The position numbers and the translations under genes were made by a program. From NCBI GenBank assembly GCA_025358055.1, contig JANYKV010000121.1, positions 585 through 64,584 of the forward strand: DNA of 64,000 nt, given 5' to 3'. Shown one piece after another: positions 5,782 through 62,544 of this stretch; the stretch's first letter is position 1, and each line of letters begins with the position of its first letter. This DNA comes from Gemmatimonadota bacterium. Its GTDB lineage: Bacteria > Gemmatimonadota > Gemmatimonadetes > Gemmatimonadales > GWC2-71-9. The notes under the pieces are model-generated. The model was given only the letters and a program-made list of their open reading frames with translations, was not told the origin of the DNA and did not search any database.

Positions 5782-6925
5782 GCGAACCACTGTGGTTGCG
5801 GAGTCCTGGGCCCAGTAGGGCTTTGTGCTCCAGGGCCTGCTTCGCCGCTTTGGATTGAGGATCGAGCGTCAAGGCGCGGCGGAACTCGGCGCGCGCCGTC
5901 TCCAGACGGCCGGCGCTCTCGTACGCGCGTCCGAGGCCGAACGCAGCCGTCGCGGCCTTGGGGTATTCGGCCGCGTTTTCCTTCAGGAGTTCGACTGCAG
6001 AGCAGACGTCCCCCATCTTTAGCATCTGGTAGCCGACGAACTCCACGCCCTCGTGCGTGTTGAGGTCGGGATGCGCGCCGCGAAAGTCGTGGTACGACCA
6101 CATCACAGCCCCGACATCGGCTCGTTCGGCATAGAGGTGTTCGAGGAACGCCTGCAGGGGCGTACGGGTGAACACCGGCGGAGAGAACGCCGCCAGGTCG
6201 AGCGCTCGGTTCACGGTGATGCTCGTGTATCGCATCTCATTGAGCACCCGGCCGGTCGCGATCTCGATCTCCCGTGCCGAAAAGGGAAAGAGGACGCCTT
6301 CAACCGGACGGAAGTCGCTAAACCTCAACTCCGACGCGACTCTCCTCCCGAACGCGTGAATCGCCGCCACCTTGCGCTCCGCGATGAGCAACCAGGTCTC
6401 CCGATCGAGGAACTCCTCCTGTTCGAAGCCGTCGGCCATTCGAACGAGAAGACGATACGCCTTGCGGTCGCCGATGTTCGTGACGCCCTTCACCGAGACC
6501 GTCCATCCGCGCTCCTTGTGCCCCAACAGCGGCCCGTCCATATAGACGGCGTGGCGGCCGGCCGCGGACGCGGCGCCAACCGTGCGGAGCACAATGCCCG
6601 GGTCGGCATAGAACTCCCACGCGCTGCCGTCGTATCCCTCTGCGAAATCGCGGGAGGGCTTTTCCGCATCTCCAACGAGCTTGTAGTAGGGCCGCATCAA
6701 CGAGAGGACAGCGTCGTCGAGCGTGTACGCCCCCTCCCGGTAGACACCTCGGTAGATGATCGTTCGGATCGCCGTGATCCTCGGGAGCCCGCCCCGTGCA
6801 TCGACGTACCGCGCGATGATCGCATCGGCGGCCGGAGTCTGTCCGGCGTCACAGTCGTTCGCAGAGAAGGCAACACTCACCACAATGGCCGCACACCGGC
6901 AGAGGAATCCAGAGGTTGTGATCAT
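5747..6925 (-). CDS. Secreted hypothetical protein with C-terminal TPR-like repeats
   Basis: ORF track. Hydrophobic N-terminus. C-terminal GLGRAYESAGRLETARAEFRRALTLDP is TPR-like. Its 3' end overlaps the convergent kinase by 35 nt. Confidence 0.6.
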   Translation of the reverse strand: MITTSGFLCRCAAIVVSVAFSANDCDAGQTPAADAIIARYVDARGGLPRITAIRTIIYRGVYREGAYTLDDAVLSLMRPYYKLVGDAEKPSRDFAEGYDGSAWEFYADPGIVLRTVGAASAAGRHAVYMDGPLLGHKERGWTVSVKGVTNIGDRKAYRLLVRMADGFEQEEFLDRETWLLIAERKVAAIHAFGRRVASELRFSDFRPVEGVLFPFSAREIEIATGRVLNEMRYTSITVNRALDLAAFSPPVFTRTPLQAFLEHLYAERADVGAVMWSYHDFRGAHPDLNTHEGVEFVGYQMLKMGDVCSAVELLKENAAEYPKAATAAFGLGRAYESAGRLETARAEFRRALTLDPQSKAAKQALEHKALLGPGLRNHSGSLRPGSSCAVAP

Positions 6926-7286: not shown

Positions 7287-9593
7287 CTAGAATCGGACCT
7301 TTCGGTATACGATGCTGATATCGCCGGTTTGAGAGGGAAGGACGTGCTCGGGCCGCGGTGGAATCAATCGACTCGGCAACGACGGCAGTCCGGCCGATCG
7401 GCCGGTGAGTTCGATCGTCAGCGAATCGCCCTTCGGGACCGTGAGCCCGAGTGTGAACCCAGACTCGAGCGGTCCAGCGAAGCTCAGTTGCCATGTCGGC
7501 GTGTGGTATCGAAAATGGCTGGGGTCAATCACCCTGCCGTCGACCGAAGCGGAGAGAACGGTGCCCTGCATGGCGCGGAGTCCGATCGAGAGCGTCCCAG
7601 GTGCCGGGCGGATCAACACGGTCAGGTGACGACCGTCCTGTGCTTGTGAATCGACAATGACCTTGGTCGTGGGCGCAATGAGCGCGACTCTCGGCGCCCG
7701 AACGGCCACAACGCTGAACTCACCTTCGAGCATTCGGGTAAGCCATACCGGCGGCCCGTCCGCGGCCGCGCCTCCACCGGGCATCACCGCTCGGGCCCCG
7801 GATCCCAACGCGTTCGCGGCCCACGATCCTGGCTGTGCATACGCCGCCGACGTTCCGAGCCACGCGCCGCTCCCGTCCGCATCCTGAGCATAGGCGAGGG
7901 CCGAACGCGAGGGATAGTCCGCATATCTGGGGCCGACCACGAACCCGATGGTCCCCACCACGAGCGCGAGGACCGCGGTGAAGAGAGCGGTACCCCATGG
8001 CCGTGGGCCGGCGAGTGCTTCGAGATCCGAGGCCAACAACCACGCCAGCAGCGGGGTCAGCCCTCCGATCGCCACGCCACCGACCCCAACCACCCCCAGA
8101 GCCACCACGCTCATTCCGTAGAGGAGCGGTACGATGATGGCACTCGCGAGGATGGTGGCGATCCATCCCACCACTCTCGCCGCGCGCAAATTGGGCCCGC
8201 CCGCACTTAGGATCGCGGCCCCGGCCGCGCCAATCAGCGGCCATGTAGTGACGAAGCTCGTCCCGGGCGCCTTCCAAGCCAAAAAGATCGCCAAAGGAGC
8301 CCAGACCACCAATGCGCCGAGATGGGCGCCGGCCGCGCTGGCCCATCGGCGAATCAGGGCCCAACAGGCCAAGGCAATCGCGAGTGCGAGAGCCGCGATG
8401 GCGAGCGCATAGAGCCCGCGCCATTCCGGGCCGCCGATCTCCGGTGCGGCGCGGAACACGGCCCCGAACGCAGCCAGTCCTCCAAGCCCGACAGCCACCA
8501 ACGTCCCCACTATCCCAAGCAACAGATCTCTCAACCACCGTTGCTCCCGGCGGCGTACGCGCACGATCGCAACCAGTACGAGCCCGACGGCGAGGATCGC
8601 GATCGGCCGAGCCCAGCCTTCGGGATACCACACCAGACCAAGAAGCGGTAGGTCGAAGAAAATGGCATCCGCGGTTTTGGGGCGGGGCAGGGGTTCGGCT
8701 CCGAACGTCCGCGCCAACTCGAGTGCCGCCCTTCCTTCCTCCTGCACGGTTCCGGGATCCAGGTGCGCGTAATCATCCTCGCTCGTGTGGTAGCGCTCGA
8801 CGCCATCGGCAAAGGCAAAGTTCAGAGCCGGAGTGTCGAGGGCAAAGAACTCGGACAGGTCCGTGTCGTTGGGAAGGAAGCGGTACACGGTCACGGCGAG
8901 CGACGTTGCGTCCACGCCCAGGCCGCGAAGCAAGCGTACCTGGTCCAAGTTGCCCGGCCCGGTCTGGAACATGCTTGGTCGCCCCCCGGTGCCACGAGCC
9001 TCGAAATTGAGAATCACCTGTACGTTGTGGGCCCACGGATGCTCTCGCACGAAAGCTGCTGCGCCGAGGAGACCCGACTCCTCGCCATCGGTAAAGAGCA
9101 GAATGACGTCGTGCAACAGTGGAGGCCCGGCCCGTAGTGCCCGCCCGACTTCGAGAAGTACCGCCGACCCTGAGGCGTCATCCCCGGCGGCCGGAGCGGC
9201 TCCCACCCCATCATAGTGCGCCGCCAGCAGCACCGCCGGACCACCCGGGCTCGTGCCGGGAATGCGCGCGAGCACATTCTCCACGCGGCCCGCCACCTGA
9301 AATCGCGTGCTCACCGCGGTCGCCCGTTGAAACTCCGGCTTGGTTCCGAGGGCGGCCAGTTGTGTCATGATATAGTCCTGCACCCGCGCGTGGTCGGGAC
9401 TCCCGACCGGATGTGGTCGGGCCGCGATCATCTGCACGTGCCGCATCGCCCGTTCGGCCGAGAAGGCGGTCGGTGGGGCGGTCGATGGGGAGGGCCGTGG
9501 AGGCCGGCGACTCGCGTAGAGAATGATTGCGGCGAACACGATTGCCATCGCGATGATGCGGGCGAGCCGTGCCTGAGAAGCGTTTAGGTTCAC
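7287..9593 (-). CDS. Membrane-anchored M28-family metallopeptidase
   Basis: AAHYDGVG...GDDASGSAVLLE...LFTDGEESGLLGAAAF are M28 metal-ligand motifs. These are followed by several long hydrophobic helices. Confidence 0.85.
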   Translation of the reverse strand: MNLNASQARLARIIAMAIVFAAIILYASRRPPRPSPSTAPPTAFSAERAMRHVQMIAARPHPVGSPDHARVQDYIMTQLAALGTKPEFQRATAVSTRFQVAGRVENVLARIPGTSPGGPAVLLAAHYDGVGAAPAAGDDASGSAVLLEVGRALRAGPPLLHDVILLFTDGEESGLLGAAAFVREHPWAHNVQVILNFEARGTGGRPSMFQTGPGNLDQVRLLRGLGVDATSLAVTVYRFLPNDTDLSEFFALDTPALNFAFADGVERYHTSEDDYAHLDPGTVQEEGRAALELARTFGAEPLPRPKTADAIFFDLPLLGLVWYPEGWARPIAILAVGLVLVAIVRVRRREQRWLRDLLLGIVGTLVAVGLGGLAAFGAVFRAAPEIGGPEWRGLYALAIAALALAIALACWALIRRWASAAGAHLGALVVWAPLAIFLAWKAPGTSFVTTWPLIGAAGAAILSAGGPNLRAARVVGWIATILASAIIVPLLYGMSVVALGVVGVGGVAIGGLTPLLAWLLASDLEALAGPRPWGTALFTAVLALVVGTIGFVVGPRYADYPSRSALAYAQDADGSGAWLGTSAAYAQPGSWAANALGSGARAVMPGGGAAADGPPVWLTRMLEGEFSVVAVRAPRVALIAPTTKVIVDSQAQDGRHLTVLIRPAPGTLSIGLRAMQGTVLSASVDGRVIDPSHFRYHTPTWQLSFAGPLESGFTLGLTVPKGDSLTIELTGRSAGLPSLPSRLIPPRPEHVLPSQTGDISIVYRKVRF

Positions 9594-9599
9594 AATGCC

Positions 9600-10391
9600 T
9601 CAACCGGCGGAGTGGGTGGCGGCCGGCTCGACCTTCCGGAGCTGGCCGGTTGCTATGAGCAGGAGAGCCGCAACCATGATTCCAAGGCTCCAAGCCAGGA
9701 ATGCGACGCGCGTGACATCGCCGGCGTGGTTCGCCATGAGGTGGGCGAGGATGGCAATCAGGAGGCTCCCGCGGCTCCGCAGCATGAGCCATGTCATCAC
9801 CGTCGCGATCCCCGTGGCTCCCAAGACAAAAACCGGGAAGGACAACTGACTCTGAGAGAGAGTCGAAAAGTAGAAGGCGGGGAGATGCCAGACTCCCCAG
9901 ATGAATCCAAGGATCAGGCTCGACTTGGTGGGAGACCAACGATCCAGCATGCGGGGCAAGGCAAACCCGCGCCACCCCAATTCCTCGCCGAGCGGGCCGG
10001 GATCGAGGAAGAGGGCCGCGGCGAGTGAAGGTAGGAAGCCTCGGAAGACAAGGGTTGGGGTTGGCCCACCAAATAGGGTCCCGACGACACCGGAACAGTA
10101 TGAGACGGCGATGAACCCGCCCACGACGACCAGATACCAAACCCAGTGGGTCCGAAGCGGATTCAGCCGGGCGAACAGGCGCTTGAGTCCGGGCCGGCCT
10201 TCGAACCAGGTGGTCAACACCAAGGAAGCCATCGCCGGGGCGTAGACAGCCAAGAAGAAGAGAGGGCTCGTCTGATTCATCGAGCCGAAGACCCGCTCGA
10301 TTAGGTGGGGTGCGATCAAAGCGGCTCCCGCGACTCCCCAGGTCAGGATGAACACGAGGACAAAGTACGTGAGAAGTGGTCGGCTTTTCAC
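9600..10391 (-). CDS. CPBP (CAAX protease/Abi) family intramembrane protease
   Basis: Polytopic membrane protein with EELGWRG (EExxxR), WGVWH (FxxxH-type) and HLMANH motifs. Confidence 0.85.
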   Translation of the reverse strand: MKSRPLLTYFVLVFILTWGVAGAALIAPHLIERVFGSMNQTSPLFFLAVYAPAMASLVLTTWFEGRPGLKRLFARLNPLRTHWVWYLVVVGGFIAVSYCSGVVGTLFGGPTPTLVFRGFLPSLAAALFLDPGPLGEELGWRGFALPRMLDRWSPTKSSLILGFIWGVWHLPAFYFSTLSQSQLSFPVFVLGATGIATVMTWLMLRSRGSLLIAILAHLMANHAGDVTRVAFLAWSLGIMVAALLLIATGQLRKVEPAATHSAG

Positions 10392-57089: not shown

Positions 57090-58858
57090 CACATCCCGAA
57101 AACCATGAGGACACCACCCGGATTCGTATAGTTCCCGAGGTCGGTAAACGCCGGAGTGCCCCCCACACCGGGCCATTGTCCTAGACCACTTAGAATCGCC
57201 AGGTATTGGTGACCATCGCGGTCGCTGAACGTGATTGGGCTCCCGGCGATCCCAGAGGGCATCTTGAACTTCCAGAGTTCCTCACCGGTCTTGTGGTCCA
57301 CCGCCTTGAGCCACCCATCCATCGTACCATAGAATACAACCCCTCCGGCGGTCGCGAGAGGTCCGCCCAAGATGCCGAGCGATTCCTTGCTCTCCCATGC
57401 GATGGTTCCATTGGTGGCGTCCCACGCGATAAATCGCCCCCGATTTCCGCCGGGCCCGGCAGTGAAGGCGATTTTGGTCCCGATATATGGCTTGCCGGGG
57501 ATATACGTCACCGGGGTTCCTTGGATATCCATGCACACGTTGGTGATCGAAACGTAGAAAAGGCCACTCAACGGTGAGAAGGCCGCTGGTTGCTGTCCTT
57601 TGATGCCTAGTGATGAAGGGCAGACCCCTAGCGTCTTCCGTTCAGTTCCAACGCTATAGCGCCCGTCGCGAACCGGGAGTCCAGTCCCCAAGTCAATCGT
57701 GCTCGCCCAATTCACCGGGCCGAACCGTTCCGCCAGCAAGAGTTTGCCATTGGTACGATCGATCGTGTAGGCGAACCCGTTGGGATCAAAATGCACGAGG
57801 GCCTTCACTGATTTTCCGCCCACCGTGAGATCAGCAAGAATACTTTCGTTTGATCCACCGTACGCCCATTCATCATGTGGAGTTACCTGATAGGCCCAGC
57901 GGACCTTTCCCGTGGTGACGTCGCGGGCGAAGATGGTGGACGACCACTTGTTGTCCCCGGGACGCAGGGTCGCGTTCCCGGGGGCCGCATTGCCGGTTCC
58001 GTAGTACAGGAGATCCAGGTCGGGATCGTAGGAAATCCATCCATCCGGCGCTCCGCCGCCGTTGCGCCACGCCTCGCCCGCCCACGAGGACACGCCAAGA
58101 TCTTTCCCTTGATGAGAGGGGTAGTGCGGATTGGCGGTTCCGGTGAGAAGGACGTCGGCGTCCGGGCCTGTGCTGTAAGCCCGCCAGAGCAATTGCCCAG
58201 TTAGCGCGTTGAGTGCTGTCAGGTATCCGCGCACGCCATGATCCCCGCCCGCCATTCCCATGAGGACCATATCGCGAATGACGAGGGGTGCGGGGGGAGT
58301 CGTCGCGCCGGTTTTGTAGTCTGCTGTCTTCACGCGCCAAATCTCGTGTCCTGTTTTCGCGTCGATCGCCGCGAGGTCGCCCTGGAGTAGAGGTACGTAG
58401 AGCTTCCCGCCCGGATGATACGCGAGCCCCCAACTCGTGCCGTCGCAGCAGGAAGTCGGCATCGCGTCTTTGGGCGGTGTCGGTGCGTATTTCCATATGA
58501 TGGGCGCGCCGGGTCGGGCGAGGTCCAGGGCGAATACGACGTTGGGGTAAGGGGTGTGAACGTACAGGGTTTGCCCCACCACGAGGGGGTTTCCCCCATG
58601 ATTGCGGAGCGAGCCCGTGGCGAACGACCAGATGGGCCGGAGGTTCCGGACTGTTGCGGCATTAATGGCGGTGAGCGGACTGAAGCGGGTGAGAGCATAG
58701 TCCTTTGCCGGGAGTTGCCACTCGCCCACCGGCGCCGTCGCTGGCCAAGCCGGAGGCTTGGCGGCGGGGGTCTGTCCGGCACTGCGGAACGACAGACTCA
58801 GCAGAGCGAGAAGCATGAGCCTCCCGCCCCGGTATGGTCTGACAGACCTCCGCTTCAC
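57089..58858 (-). CDS. PQQ-dependent dehydrogenase (methanol/ethanol quinoprotein family)
   Basis: ORF trimmed to GTG 58858 (GTGA overlap with the upstream stop), giving a signal peptide. Vicinal-Cys SCCDG motif. Repeated W-docking propeller pattern. 590 aa. Confidence 0.8.
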   Translation of the reverse strand: MKRRSVRPYRGGRLMLLALLSLSFRSAGQTPAAKPPAWPATAPVGEWQLPAKDYALTRFSPLTAINAATVRNLRPIWSFATGSLRNHGGNPLVVGQTLYVHTPYPNVVFALDLARPGAPIIWKYAPTPPKDAMPTSCCDGTSWGLAYHPGGKLYVPLLQGDLAAIDAKTGHEIWRVKTADYKTGATTPPAPLVIRDMVLMGMAGGDHGVRGYLTALNALTGQLLWRAYSTGPDADVLLTGTANPHYPSHQGKDLGVSSWAGEAWRNGGGAPDGWISYDPDLDLLYYGTGNAAPGNATLRPGDNKWSSTIFARDVTTGKVRWAYQVTPHDEWAYGGSNESILADLTVGGKSVKALVHFDPNGFAYTIDRTNGKLLLAERFGPVNWASTIDLGTGLPVRDGRYSVGTERKTLGVCPSSLGIKGQQPAAFSPLSGLFYVSITNVCMDIQGTPVTYIPGKPYIGTKIAFTAGPGGNRGRFIAWDATNGTIAWESKESLGILGGPLATAGGVVFYGTMDGWLKAVDHKTGEELWKFKMPSGIAGSPITFSDRDGHQYLAILSGLGQWPGVGGTPAFTDLGNYTNPGGVLMVFGM

Positions 58859-60066
58859 TTCTTCTTCCTGAAAATTGTGGGGTCGTAGACGCTCCGAGGA
58901 TTCCAAAGGACCCATGACTTGAGCCCCACGTCCTCTACCGCTTGGATTTGGGCTCGGACCATGGCAGGCGTGTAATGCGGCGGCCCCAGAGTGAAGGCCT
59001 GCAAATAGGGGCGAATCTCGGCCCGTTGGGCCAGTGGGCCCGAGCGGCGGACAGCATCTTCCAACGCATGACGAACGACCTTGTACGGCTCGCTGTTTGG
59101 ATGTCGCATTTTGTAGAAGGTGTCGTAGTAGTGGCTGGGGTACACCATTGGAAGGACGACATCCGCGGTGCTGGCGAGATCCTCCCAAAGTTGCCCGATG
59201 CCCATGTCGATCGGGACGGTGGTGGTGAGGCCGAACACATCAATTGTGAAGGGAACGCCCAACGGCTTCGTCCGATCGCGCATGAGGCGAAGGTTTCTGG
59301 CGATGCCGTCCCGAACCGTTTCTTGCCCCCGGCGCGCCGGGAAAATTGCCGTCGCAAGCCGATGAGGAGGCTCGTCGGGAAAACGCACATAGTCGTATTG
59401 AACCTCCGCGAACCCTGCCTTGACCGCTTCGGACGCAATCTGGGAAGCATATACCCACACTGAATCGTTGAACGCGTCCACCCAGGCGAAGTTCTTCCGA
59501 TCTCTCCACAGCCCACCGGCGGTGCTCTTCACTGCCCACGCCGATTTGCGCGTGGCAAGAAGCGGATCCTTCGCGACGACAATTCGAGCGATGGGGTAAA
59601 TGTTGTGTGCGATCAGCGTACGCAACCGTTGGCGAGTGTCCCGGGCCCGCAACTGCTTGTCGGCCCCGATCTCCTTCACGGTCGGAATGTCCATTCCATA
59701 GGTTAGGTACCCAGTATCGTCCTTGACGTCGATAATGAAGGCGTTGATCTCCGTCGTATCGGCCAGCCGAACCAGGTCGTTCAGTTTACGAGATCCAAAA
59801 ACCCACGCATTGAGGTAGATCCCGTGTACGGCCGCGGGTGGCTTCTGGAGTGGGGGTGCTGGATGGGCGATCGGGGCCGTTACCAGGAGTCCGTGGGGAT
59901 AGGGAATCCGTTTTGGGGCGTGAGGCGGGGCCAGTTCATCGCCCCACCCGCCCTTAACGTCACTGGATTGACCCGAGAGCGACACCCCACCGAGGAGGAG
60001 GCACGACAGAAGTTGAGGGAGCCGGGTCGAACGTCGCATGGGGGTCGATGTCAATCGGGTGAGCAT
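58855..60066 (-). CDS. Secreted putative glycoside hydrolase (DUF4015-like TIM barrel)
   Basis: INAFIIDVKDDTG, WVDAFN, QYDYVRFPDEP are motifs characteristic of the DUF4015/GHL family. Confidence 0.65.
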   Translation of the reverse strand: MLTRLTSTPMRRSTRLPQLLSCLLLGGVSLSGQSSDVKGGWGDELAPPHAPKRIPYPHGLLVTAPIAHPAPPLQKPPAAVHGIYLNAWVFGSRKLNDLVRLADTTEINAFIIDVKDDTGYLTYGMDIPTVKEIGADKQLRARDTRQRLRTLIAHNIYPIARIVVAKDPLLATRKSAWAVKSTAGGLWRDRKNFAWVDAFNDSVWVYASQIASEAVKAGFAEVQYDYVRFPDEPPHRLATAIFPARRGQETVRDGIARNLRLMRDRTKPLGVPFTIDVFGLTTTVPIDMGIGQLWEDLASTADVVLPMVYPSHYYDTFYKMRHPNSEPYKVVRHALEDAVRRSGPLAQRAEIRPYLQAFTLGPPHYTPAMVRAQIQAVEDVGLKSWVLWNPRSVYDPTIFRKKK

Positions 60067-60215
60067 ACACGGTCTGAACCAACCTTAGGAAACATACGGG
60101 GATAAATAGGCCCGGCTCCATCGGTTTACAAGGTGATGCCCTTGGCCCGCACCGCTGGTTTGGGTACGATTCGAAGGCAGCTAACCTCCCAATTCGCGTA
60201 AGGGGTACCCAATCG

Positions 60216-60449
60216 ATGAAAGTTTCCATCGAATACTGTACCGTTTGAAACTACGAGCCCCGGGCCGTCAGTTTGGCGGCCGAAGTCAGATCGAAACATC
60301 CCCAGGCGACCGTCGAGTTGATTCCCTCCAAGGGGGGGGTCTTCGAGGTGGTGGTCGAGGGCCGGTTGGTGTTCTCGAAAAAGGCCGAGCATCGGCACGC
60401 CAATCCGGGAGAGGTCTTGAGAAAAATCAGGATGGCTAAGGAGACGTAA
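60216..60449 (+). CDS. SelW/Rdx-family redox protein with in-frame TGA (candidate selenocysteine, CxxU)
   Basis: Not in the ORF track because TGA splits it. My translation: MKVSIEYCTV-U(TGA 60246-60248)-NYEPRAVSLAAEVRSKHPQATVELIPSKGGVFEVVVEGRLVFSKKAEHRHANPGEVLRKIRMAKET*. Matches the Rdx pattern IEYCxxC/U..RA..LA.E......V.L.P...G.FEV.V.G.L.FSK. The frame stays open for 66 codons after the TGA with high GC3. AAGGGG lies 10 nt before the ATG. Stop TAA overlaps the pfk ATG (TAATG). Confidence 0.7.
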
Positions 60450-61591
60450 TGCGCATCGCCATTTCCACGGGCGGAGGAGATGCTCCTGGACTGAACGCAG
60501 TCATTCGAGCCATCGTGCTGTCGGCGCTCCAGCGCGGCTGGGAGATATTCGGGATTCGGCGGGGTTACGACGGACTCTACATTCGTGGCCGGACGACGTC
60601 GCTCTCCGCAACGCACGTTGGGCAGGAGCGACGAAAGGGCCAAAGCCAAGGTGGCTTGATCGCAATGGGCCCCGAACAGGTTCGCGGGATTACCCACCTC
60701 GGGGGCACGATCCTGGGGACGACCAATCGAGGTAACCCTTTCAAGTGGCCCACCCGGCAGCCCGACGGCTCCATTCTGGAAGTGGATCGGAGTGATGAAC
60801 TGCTCCGTGCGTTTCGCGAAGCTAAGCTCGACGCATTGGTCTCTATCGGCGGGGATGGTAGCCTACAGATTGCTCACGATCTCTGGAAGAAAGGCATCCC
60901 CGCCGTCGGCGTGCCCAAGACCATCGATAACGATGTGGTGGGCACCGATTCTACCTTCGGGTTCGACACCGCCGTCAGTACCGCGACCGACGCCATTGAT
61001 AAGCTGCACTCCACCGCCGAAAGCCATGACCGGGTGTTCGTCGTTGAGCTCATGGGTCGCTATGCCGGATGGATCACGCTTCACAGCGGGCTCTCCGGCA
61101 GCGCCGATGTGATTCTCATCCCGGAAATCCCGTTCGACATCGAGAAGGTATGCCAAAAGATCCGCGACCGAGATGCCCAGGGTAGGCGATTCTCCATTGT
61201 GGTAGTGGCGGAAGGCGCCCGGCCGTATGGCGGCGCGATCGTGTTGAAAGAGTCCGCTCAAAGGGGAACGGTGGAGCGGCTGGGAGGCATTGGTGCCGTG
61301 GTAGCCCAGGAGATCGTCGAACGCACTGGGAAAGAAACGCGTAGCCTAGTACTCGGCCACCTTCAGCGCGGGGGCAGCCCCTCAACCTTCGATCGCCTGT
61401 TGGCGCTTCGCTTAGGCTCCGCCGCGGCACGGGCGATTGCCGACCGGGACTTCGGAAGTGTGGTGGTCTATACGCCGCCCACCGTGAGCCGCCTCCCGCT
61501 GTCGGCCGTGATCGGGAAAACCAAGCTAGTGCCGCTCGACAGCGGAGTAATTCTCACTGCGAGGAGCCTCGGAATCTGTCTCGGAGATTGA
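60449..61591 (+). CDS. pfkA: 6-phosphofructokinase (ATP- or PPi-dependent; donor not resolvable)
   Basis: GGGDAPGLNAVIRA, IGGDGS, PKTIDNDV, ELMGRYAGW. Confidence 0.9.
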   Translation: MRIAISTGGGDAPGLNAVIRAIVLSALQRGWEIFGIRRGYDGLYIRGRTTSLSATHVGQERRKGQSQGGLIAMGPEQVRGITHLGGTILGTTNRGNPFKWPTRQPDGSILEVDRSDELLRAFREAKLDALVSIGGDGSLQIAHDLWKKGIPAVGVPKTIDNDVVGTDSTFGFDTAVSTATDAIDKLHSTAESHDRVFVVELMGRYAGWITLHSGLSGSADVILIPEIPFDIEKVCQKIRDRDAQGRRFSIVVVAEGARPYGGAIVLKESAQRGTVERLGGIGAVVAQEIVERTGKETRSLVLGHLQRGGSPSTFDRLLALRLGSAAARAIADRDFGSVVVYTPPTVSRLPLSAVIGKTKLVPLDSGVILTARSLGICLGD

Positions 61592-61599
61592 GGCCGGCA

Positions 61600-61953
61600 C
61601 TACAATCCGCGCACGAACGGCTTCGCCGGACCGGATAGGTGGCTCTCGGGGCCCGGCTTCCAGAGCACCTGGCGTTCGATCAATTCCGCGACCTCGAAGT
61701 CCTTGACCGTGATCCCGCCGGCGCTGTGAGTACTGAGGGACACCTCCACGGCCGGCCAGCTTACCTGCAGATTGGGATGGTGGTCCGCCGCTTCACACAC
61801 AAAGGCGATAGCATTGACTACGAGTAGCGTTCCTCGCCAACCATCCGTACGATACGTCCTCTGAATGGATCCACTCCGATAGGTCCATCCCGGCACGGTT
61901 TGAAGCCGCTCCCCGATCTGCTGATCCGTAAGCCTGACTTCATCTCCTGACAT
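61600..61953 (-). CDS. Pterin-4-alpha-carbinolamine dehydratase (PCD/DCoH family)
   Basis: GW.......I.R.Y....W......VN.IAFV.E..DHHPNL...W..V...L.THS.GG.T..D is the family pattern. Confidence 0.8.
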   Translation of the reverse strand: MSGDEVRLTDQQIGERLQTVPGWTYRSGSIQRTYRTDGWRGTLLVVNAIAFVCEAADHHPNLQVSWPAVEVSLSTHSAGGITVKDFEVAELIERQVLWKPGPESHLSGPAKPFVRGL

Positions 61954-61986: not shown

Positions 61987-62544
61987 CTAAGACCCGAAGG
62001 GCACCGTGAAAAATGCGGATTGGCCTATGGTCTCCTCGATTTCGACTTCGATGGTCGAAAGCGTACTCAGGCCCGTCTGAACCAAGTTATCGCGAATCAT
62101 GAGGGCAAAGTATTCCGCAATCATTTCCGCCGTTGTGTTCGTCACCGGGAGCAGGGCGCAGTCGGCGCGCGGGAACGTATAGCGCACGCGACCGAGGTAG
62201 TCGACCTCGAGACTGTCCCCCTCCTCGCGAAGGACCAGCTTGGGGTTTTTGGTGGGAAGCAGCACTCGATGGTCGATTTTCTCGACGTGCGGTCGGACTA
62301 TTCGCTTCAAGACACCGAAATCGACCACGAAGGAGCACTCGGGGTCCACGTCTCCAACCACGGTTACACCCACCCTGTAGTTGTGGCCGTGGAGCGACTC
62401 ACACGTATGACCAAGGAGTGTGATAAAGTGGGCAGAACTGAACCCGAGATAGTCCTTACAGACGGTCACTCTAAAGTTGCGCGACACGGCTCTCCCGCAC
62501 GGTTCAGGTCGACCTTCCCCCAGGGTCTGGGTCTTCGCGGCCAA
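61987..62544 (-). CDS. 6-pyruvoyl-tetrahydropterin synthase / QueD-family enzyme
   Basis: FSSAHF...CESLHGHNYRV (Cys plus HGH zinc and catalytic motifs). The track start at 62544 is TTG. An alternative GTG at 62487 is preceded by GGGAGAG. Confidence 0.75.
   Translation of the reverse strand: MAAKTQTLGEGRPEPCGRAVSRNFRVTVCKDYLGFSSAHFITLLGHTCESLHGHNYRVGVTVVGDVDPECSFVVDFGVLKRIVRPHVEKIDHRVLLPTKNPKLVLREEGDSLEVDYLGRVRYTFPRADCALLPVTNTTAEMIAEYFALMIRDNLVQTGLSTLSTIEVEIEETIGQSAFFTVPFGS

Follow-up and report, generated by a model that had tools for sequence, protein, structure and literature searches.

In the current study, we characterized a selW-like gene of the Rdx family at positions 60216–60449 (+ strand) of a 64,000-nt stretch of Gemmatimonadota DNA (hereafter, the window), whose 77-residue product carries a CTVU motif. 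On the basis of its translation, profile scores and orthologous loci, we consider it highly probable that this is a genuine, functional gene encoding a selenocysteine-containing SelW-like protein. This reading is supported by family membership, conservation of an in-frame UGA, RNA-level constraint and covariation in a hairpin downstream of that codon, and a recurrent arrangement with pfk, the gene for 6-phosphofructokinase. The product would be a thioredoxin-fold selenoprotein with a Cys8-x-x-Sec11 redox centre. Beginning 13 nt past the UGA at 60246, with its apex at 60263–60281 and a G and a U in its loop, a SECIS hairpin would recruit SelB and Sec-tRNA to read this codon as selenocysteine. 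The gene would also serve as first cistron of a two-gene selW-pfk operon, with the final nucleotide of its stop codon doubling as the first of pfk. Judging from sequence, Sec is presumably inserted at this UGA, and the SelW-like product presumably acts as a thiol/selenol oxidoreductase.

The selW frame opens with an ATG at 60216–60218, preceded at a spacing of 10 nt by a Shine-Dalgarno-like AAGGGG (60200–60205, + strand); AAGGGT or AAGGTG occupies the same place in related loci of the window's subgroup. Ten codons (MKVSIEYCTV) lead up to a TGA at 60246–60248 (+ strand), read here as selenocysteine at residue 11, and 66 sense codons follow it. The translation thus consists of MKVSIEYCTV, an internal stop, NYEPRAVSLAAEVRSKHPQATVELIPSKGGVFEVVVEGRLVFSKKAEHRHANPGEVLRKIRMAKET and the terminal stop, and the product begins MKVSIEYCTV-U-NYEPRAV. 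The first residue of the CxxU redox motif, Cys8, is encoded by TGT at 60237–60239 (+ strand) and is Cys in 81 of 81 sequences compared; codon 11 is TGA in the same 81 of 81 and aligns with Cys in homologues. At the distal end, the terminal TAA (60447–60449) gives its last A to the pfk ATG at 60449–60451 (TAATG). The initial annotation had marked this start, Shine-Dalgarno sequence, frame, TGA and TAATG overlap, and each was found in the sequence where it had been placed. It had also described the third-position GC content as high and typical of the genome, which agrees with values of 0.74 in the selW frame vs. 0.70 in pfk. Finally, it had stated that gene callers miss the gene. Indeed, the mechanical list of ORFs holds for selW just a 58-aa ORF from a TTG at 60273, so a standard caller truncates the gene or misses it altogether.

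Membership in the Rdx family, proposed at the outset, was borne out by profile searches in which the U of the 77-residue product was replaced by C. The product scored 76.7 bits against Pfam Rdx (PF10262; cut-off 22.6, E = 1.6e-21) over profile positions 1–73 of 74, 62.8 bits against NCBIfam TIGR02174 (CXXU_selWTH; cut-off 34.2) and 100.1 bits against NCBIfam NF041051 ('SelT/SelW/SelH family (seleno)protein'; cut-off 88), all three above the curated cut-offs. A sequence search of the PDB returned Atu0228 (2fa8, E = 1e-9), MIEN1, SAV_2001 (3dex), 2obk and mouse SelW (2npb), with CTVC of the query aligned to CTQC of 2fa8 and CEPC of MIEN1. In the window protein, the redox motif C8-T-V-U11 lies directly after the first beta strand. 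For structure prediction, we modelled a natural Cys orthologue, P0001, that is 66% identical to the window protein. The model (pLDDT 87.6) shows the order strand, CxxC, helix, three strands, helix, with CxxC placed after strand E2–8 and before helix H14–27. Its best PDB matches are all SelW-related (rmsd 1.3–2.0 Å). As modelled on this Cys orthologue, the product is predicted to adopt a thioredoxin-like beta-alpha-beta-beta-beta-alpha fold. The same fold is found in the Cys-containing Rdx structures of Atu0228 (2fa8), SAV_2001 (3dex), Pseudomonas fluorescens (2obk) and Vibrio cholerae (2p0g), with TM scores of 0.8–0.88 to the model; 2fa8 aligned over residues 2–72, with its CxxC at the position of the window's CxxU. 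These solved structures differ from the window protein in having Cys at the site of the predicted Sec. Mammalian selenoprotein W (2npb) and MIEN1 (2ljk) also belong to the Rdx family and share the CxxU/CxxC after strand 1 and the thioredoxin-like fold. However, identity to them is only about 26–33%, and the eukaryotic SECIS is of another type and resides in the 3′ UTR.

Whether the TGA is part of the gene was addressed by comparison with relatives. A scan of one genome per species gave 541 stretches encoding relatives, of which the best 80 were analysed; these derive from Gemmatimonadales or Gemmatimonadota MAGs, except for one labelled Methylomirabilota, and share 55–71% identity. Among these best 80 of 541 loci, codon 11 is TGA in 80/80 and TGT or TGC in none. 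The residues ahead of it follow the pattern M-x-V-x-I-E/Q-Y/F-C-x-x in 80/80, and at least 60 residues, covering the whole domain, are conserved after it. Again within the best 80 of 541, no additional in-frame stop precedes the terminal one and no other lesion was seen. The orthologue comparison of Cys against TGA that the initial annotation had put forward therefore came out uniformly for TGA. These data bear directly on two alternatives. A decayed Cys-form Rdx pseudogene, in which the Cys codon was mutated to a stop, would look just like this in one genome after a single change from TGT or TGC to TGA, and a Cys-form relative (P0001) does exist. Decay of this kind is nevertheless extremely improbable, given an identical TGA in all of the best 80 of 541 loci at this level of divergence, an absence of further stops or frameshifts, protein conservation on both sides of the codon and a GC3 as high as that of pfk. 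Alternatively, the real gene could be limited to the 58-aa ORF from the TTG at 60273, devoid of the redox motif, with the upstream portion serving as an untranslated leader. ORF finders and many database entries do report products of 42–62 aa, but the shortened entries begin at differing, non-homologous positions. Moreover, conservation at the protein level extends to the ten codons ahead of the TGA in every locus (best 80 of 541), Cys8 is invariant, and the shorter product would have neither strand 1 nor the CxxU centre, both of them defining features of the fold. We therefore give hardly any credence to a downstream start: the TGA in 80/80 of the best 80 of 541 loci, with protein conserved on both sides, argues against it and against a pseudogene alike. 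In a few related loci the frames themselves are irregular. In L023 (6001–7167), the selW frame has no normal terminal stop and runs 388 codons on into pfk, and in L019 and L052 (around 6240–6850) pfk is split between frames. These irregularities are probably not biological but due to frameshift or assembly errors in the MAGs.

If the UGA is translated, as the preferred Sec reading holds, the question becomes which amino acid it specifies. The codon had initially been assigned to the second redox residue, and it does align with the second Cys of CxxC in Cys homologues and solved structures: Cys occupies the position in P0001 (CVIC), P0008 and P0012 (CAPC), P0021 (CKPC) and 2fa8. Some full-length database relatives show W there instead (CVVW, CTAW and others), and many others are fragments of 42–62 aa that start at varied places past the codon. 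The entries with W, or shortened to 42–62 aa with arbitrary starts, include P0002–P0006, P0009, P0019, P0037, P0038 and P0007–P0102. The W residues could be taken to mean that UGA is read without a Sec system, either by near-cognate insertion of Trp, Cys or Arg or through lineage-wide reassignment, a view with which the failure to observe Sec machinery in the window or flanks is also compatible. The W is explained, however, by translation of TGA under another translation table. Furthermore, TGA is no reassigned codon: it is the commonest genuine stop in the window, at the end of 23 of 35 long ORFs, and terminates most selW orthologues as well. Directly after the codon there is, in addition, a selected hairpin with an fdhF-like GGUCU apex, and L089, the single natural Cys form inspected, has GGC there instead of GGT and hence no loop U. 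Taken together, these points make read-through by means other than Sec very unlikely. We conclude that W-for-U and shortened entries constitute a systematic annotation artefact for the SelW-like family, and that public annotations of a widespread group of environmental bacteria omit a real, conserved gene, shorten it or render its U as W.

The hairpin provides further evidence for Sec decoding. The predicted bacterial SECIS element, assessed by pairing counts, frozen synonymous sites, folding and comparison with fdhF, lies at 60259–60284 (+ strand). It comprises a lower stem (60259–60261 with 60282–60284), a bulged G (60262), an upper stem (60263–60269 with 60275–60281) and an apical loop at 60270–60274 (AGUUU, + strand) that contains G60271 and U60272. 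When the U of UGA is numbered 1, such that position n corresponds to window position 60245 + n, the hairpin spans +14 to +39. The structure tested on a gapless alignment of 81 sequences pairs 14–16 with 37–39 and 18–24 with 30–36, leaving G17 bulged and 25–29 as the loop. The initial annotation had pointed to a GGCCG/CGGCC hairpin, which is present at 60263–60267/60277–60281 and is lengthened by U-G, C-G and A-U pairs into an 8-bp stem with a GUU loop. It had suggested a SECIS role as well, which comparison among loci supports for this hairpin that it had called "modest". The 65-nt stretch it had singled out for folding (60246–60310) is unremarkable in energy (z = 0.06); it is therefore by comparing loci, and not by energy, that the hairpin is supported. 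The 26-nt element by itself folds in the window at -14.2 kcal/mol (z = -2.8 vs. shuffles), and values in relatives are similar.

Across the alignment, standard pairs occupy 85.6% of cells, vs. 22–51% when the 3′ partners are slid by 1–3 columns, and changes occur on both sides in 5 of the 10 pairs of the tested hairpin. The pair 18–36, for example, is G-C in 50 sequences but A-U in another 21; both bases occupy third positions, of Arg and Ala codons, so that pairing in the RNA is restored with no change to the protein. Similarly, pairs 22–32 and 23–31 jointly become A-U and U-A in two sequences. Within the loop (25–29), which reads GGUCU in most loci, G26 never varies and U27 is kept by at least 90% of loci. 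Codon choice is frozen over the same region: Ala17 is GCC in 74/81, Ala18 GCC in 41/41, Gly19 GGT in 57/58, Leu20 NTG in 80/80 and Ala21 GCG in 78/79. Third-base entropy at codons 17–21 is accordingly low, at 0–0.5 bit vs. about 1.0–2.0 bits at the other four-fold codons of selW, and GGT elsewhere in the gene is a minority Gly codon (8–19 of about 80 sequences). In the Cys-form orthologue L089, codon 11 is TGT and GGC replaces GGT in the loop, meaning that the loop U has been lost. In two distant SelW-like loci, L098 and L099, TGA is followed by GCCGUCGGUCUGACGG, in which the loop is unchanged and the stem sequence is altered yet still pairs. These comparisons support the interpretation of the hairpin as a putative SECIS under RNA-level selection.

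The element resembles the SECIS of E. coli fdhF, which likewise follows the UGA immediately, within the coding region, and has an unpaired base below its upper stem. The fdhF apex, GCAGGUCUGC, contains in-frame GGU-CUG (Gly-Leu) and a GGUC(U) loop, as in most selW loci. The two differ in the placement of the loop G/U (+26/+27 from the U of UGA in selW vs. +23/+24, G23 and U24, in fdhF), in the upper stem (7 bp and G+C-rich in selW vs. 4 bp) and in the bulged base (G vs. U). The loop of the window itself, AGUUU or a GUU triloop, is also unlike the GGUCU of fdhF. Searches of Rfam at gathering and permissive thresholds gave no SECIS family and no other credible match to the hairpin. A different 5-bp helix (24–28 with 33–37) in the RNAalifold consensus showed weak covariation and was rejected, since covariation is much stronger and controls are better for the structure described above. 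As a side observation, three independent short-read contigs with identical pfk (Logan contigs L001, L002 and L004) all start 195 nt before the pfk ATG, at about window position 60254, between the Sec codon and the hairpin. This element, G+C-rich and highly conserved, may be a point where short-read assemblies break.

Genes for Sec decoding were sought in the available sequence. ARAGORN found no tRNA gene in the 64-kb window, tblastn with E. coli queries found no SelA, SelB or SelD homologue there, and about 0.9 Mb of sequence flanking the 80 related loci yielded no selA, selB, selD or tRNA-Sec. Contigs with identical pfk extend to at most 7.8 kb. Because the window and flanks are small samples of their genomes, these negative results are uninformative. 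The conserved UGA and SECIS, in turn, suggest that the Sec machinery is present in the host genome. By the same token, selW would imply that Gemmatimonadales decode selenocysteine. In the literature searched, we found no statement that Gemmatimonadota do so, and Gemmatimonas aurantiaca appeared merely in a list of genomes analysed.

Further selenoprotein genes were sought in the window and flanks as well. Three scans, of read-through ORFs filtered by GC3, of conservation across TGA between loci and of TGA followed by a GU-loop hairpin, all returned just selW and out-of-frame noise. One candidate, formed by ORFs at 9600–10391 and 7287–9593 (- strand) that share a frame and are separated by a TGA and two codons, was rejected as read-through, with Pfam identifying two unrelated genes, for an Rce1-like CAAX protease and a peptidase M28. 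Roughly 3–5 kb upstream of selW, related loci (L017:600–2300, L022:1200–2900) contain a conserved, internally repetitive region with out-of-frame matches between loci of the form GQPxASTxAPAGVxGH-TGA-SxPSGTPS; this region probably encodes a repeat-rich gene on another frame or strand. A different arrangement was noted in a Myxococcales MAG (JAGQJP010000713.1; L095:5825–6243), which has a tandem pair of Rdx genes. A Sec form (CRE-TGA-NYYP…) whose TGA is followed by GCUGCCAGUCUGGCGGC, and which is called just as a 55-aa fragment, comes first, and 8 nt downstream of it is a Cys form (P0021, CKPC).

Another feature of the locus is the pairing of selW with pfk. The latter (60449–61591, + strand) encodes a 380-aa 6-phosphofructokinase (PF00365, 348 bits; TIGR02483, 417.6; NF002872, 360.5), and has a Shine-Dalgarno sequence of its own, AAGGAG (60438–60443, + strand), which is spaced 5 nt from the pfk ATG and falls within the 3′-terminal part of selW. 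Since the neighbours on both sides, a DUF4015 glycosyl-hydrolase-like gene (58855–60066), a pterin-4a-carbinolamine dehydratase gene (61600–61953) and a 6-pyruvoyl tetrahydropterin synthase family (PTPS) gene (61987–62544), are on the opposite (-) strand, selW and pfk constitute an isolated two-gene unit. The direct coupling had been called unusual. The pairing is not confined to this DNA: in 66 of the best 80 of 541 loci the next gene after selW, in the same orientation, is pfk, and the pairing is kept in about 80% of the Gemmatimonadales loci sampled. Of the same best 80 of 541, 14 are without pfk, several having a helicase-like gene downstream, like the Cys form L089. Six other inspected loci have no pfk nearby, namely L089 together with L092, L095, L098, L099 and L100/L101. 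Within the loci sampled, therefore, the selW-pfk pairing appears to belong to the Gemmatimonadales clade.

The junction between the two genes was compared in the window and in 65 loci for which the pfk N-terminus could be aligned, 66 sequences in all. The gap measures -10 to +3 nt in 53 of the 66, and a 4-nt overlap is found in 29, where pfk starts with GTG (18) or TTG (11) and never with ATG. The claim that the selW stop adjoins the pfk start in the window (TAATG) was correct, and overlap or near-overlap is common among its relatives. None of the motifs GGAG, GAGG or AGGA precedes pfk in 44/66 sequences, which is a weak point when taken alone, since Shine-Dalgarno motifs are also rare before selW. 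This geometry suggests that translation of pfk is coupled to that of selW. In the window, where pfk has its own AAGGAG and an ATG, the dependence of pfk translation on selW may be weak, and coupling may matter less.

Two functional explanations of the pairing can be envisaged, singly or together: translation of pfk may need ribosomes that have passed the Sec-UGA, and the phosphofructokinase may have the SelW-like protein as its dedicated redox partner. We offer such a functional link as a speculation that is more likely wrong than right by a wide measure. The corollary, that by either route pfk expression or activity would be tied to selenium through selW, is just as doubtful. In favour of Sec-gated translation, the pfk start is often a GTG or TTG that overlaps the selW stop and has no recognisable Shine-Dalgarno sequence. 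If such gating were true, synthesis of phosphofructokinase would follow selenium supply or Sec-decoding capacity. We know of no function for bacterial SelW-like/Rdx proteins, and either link, if true, would provide the first defined one. The order-wide placement of selW before pfk thus gives a modest functional lead, connecting a selenol/thiol redox protein with control of glycolytic flux. Within the phosphofructokinase itself, Cys235 (EKVCQKI), a possible redox target, is conserved in 53/60 selW-linked enzymes, a count that covers linked enzymes alone; C377, the other Cys in the window enzyme, lacks such conservation.

CxxU SelW-like proteins with a SECIS directly after the UGA were among the first, and are among the most abundant, bacterial selenoprotein families described. 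They form the largest family of the Sargasso Sea selenoproteome, with 48 genes (PMC1088965), and were listed in many complete genomes in 2006, with Cys forms described as rare in Sec-using organisms (PMC1794560). The window protein shares with these bacterial SelW-like selenoproteins (PMC1088965, PMC1794560) a length of about 75–100 aa, an N-terminal strand followed by CxxU, and the GGVFEV and FSK motifs. Also shared are the in-frame UGA with a SECIS directly downstream, the G in a small apical loop and the mixture of Sec and Cys forms. It differs in coming from the Gemmatimonadales clade, a group for which we found no published selenoproteome, and in the position of its gene as first cistron before pfk (66/80 in the best 80 of 541 loci, and not in the six other loci inspected). 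Since descriptions of the family, of the CxxU motif and of this type of SECIS date back about twenty years, the gene itself will be no surprise to a specialist; it lies within established selenoprotein biology, in an already known family. To our knowledge, neither a clade-wide Sec form in Gemmatimonadales nor selW as the lead cistron of a pfk operon has been described.

Promoter-like elements were also found upstream of the gene pair. In the window, TTGGCC (60142–60147), a 17-nt spacer and TACGAT (60165–60170) form a putative selW-pfk promoter at 60142–60170 (+ strand), 46 nt upstream of the selW ATG. A consensus promoter scanner called no promoter here, with TTGGCC-N17-TACGAT falling just below its threshold. 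Some two dozen related loci have the arrangement CTTGGC…N17…TACGATTCG upstream of selW as well. Another subgroup, amounting to about 40/80 loci (L009–L063 and others; e.g., L017:5080–5126), carries a nearly invariant GTGGCGCGG-GTGTCAAGCGCGAC-TATCGT-TTACGCC within the 45 nt before selW, abutting the ATG. Read as a -35/-10 pair (GTGGCG/TTGGCG, N18, TATCGT) with 7 nt to the ATG, this sequence would make the selW mRNA of that subgroup leaderless. In the window's own subgroup, where the conserved pair is instead TTGGCC-N17-TACGAT, the leader would measure about 39 nt and include AAGGGG.
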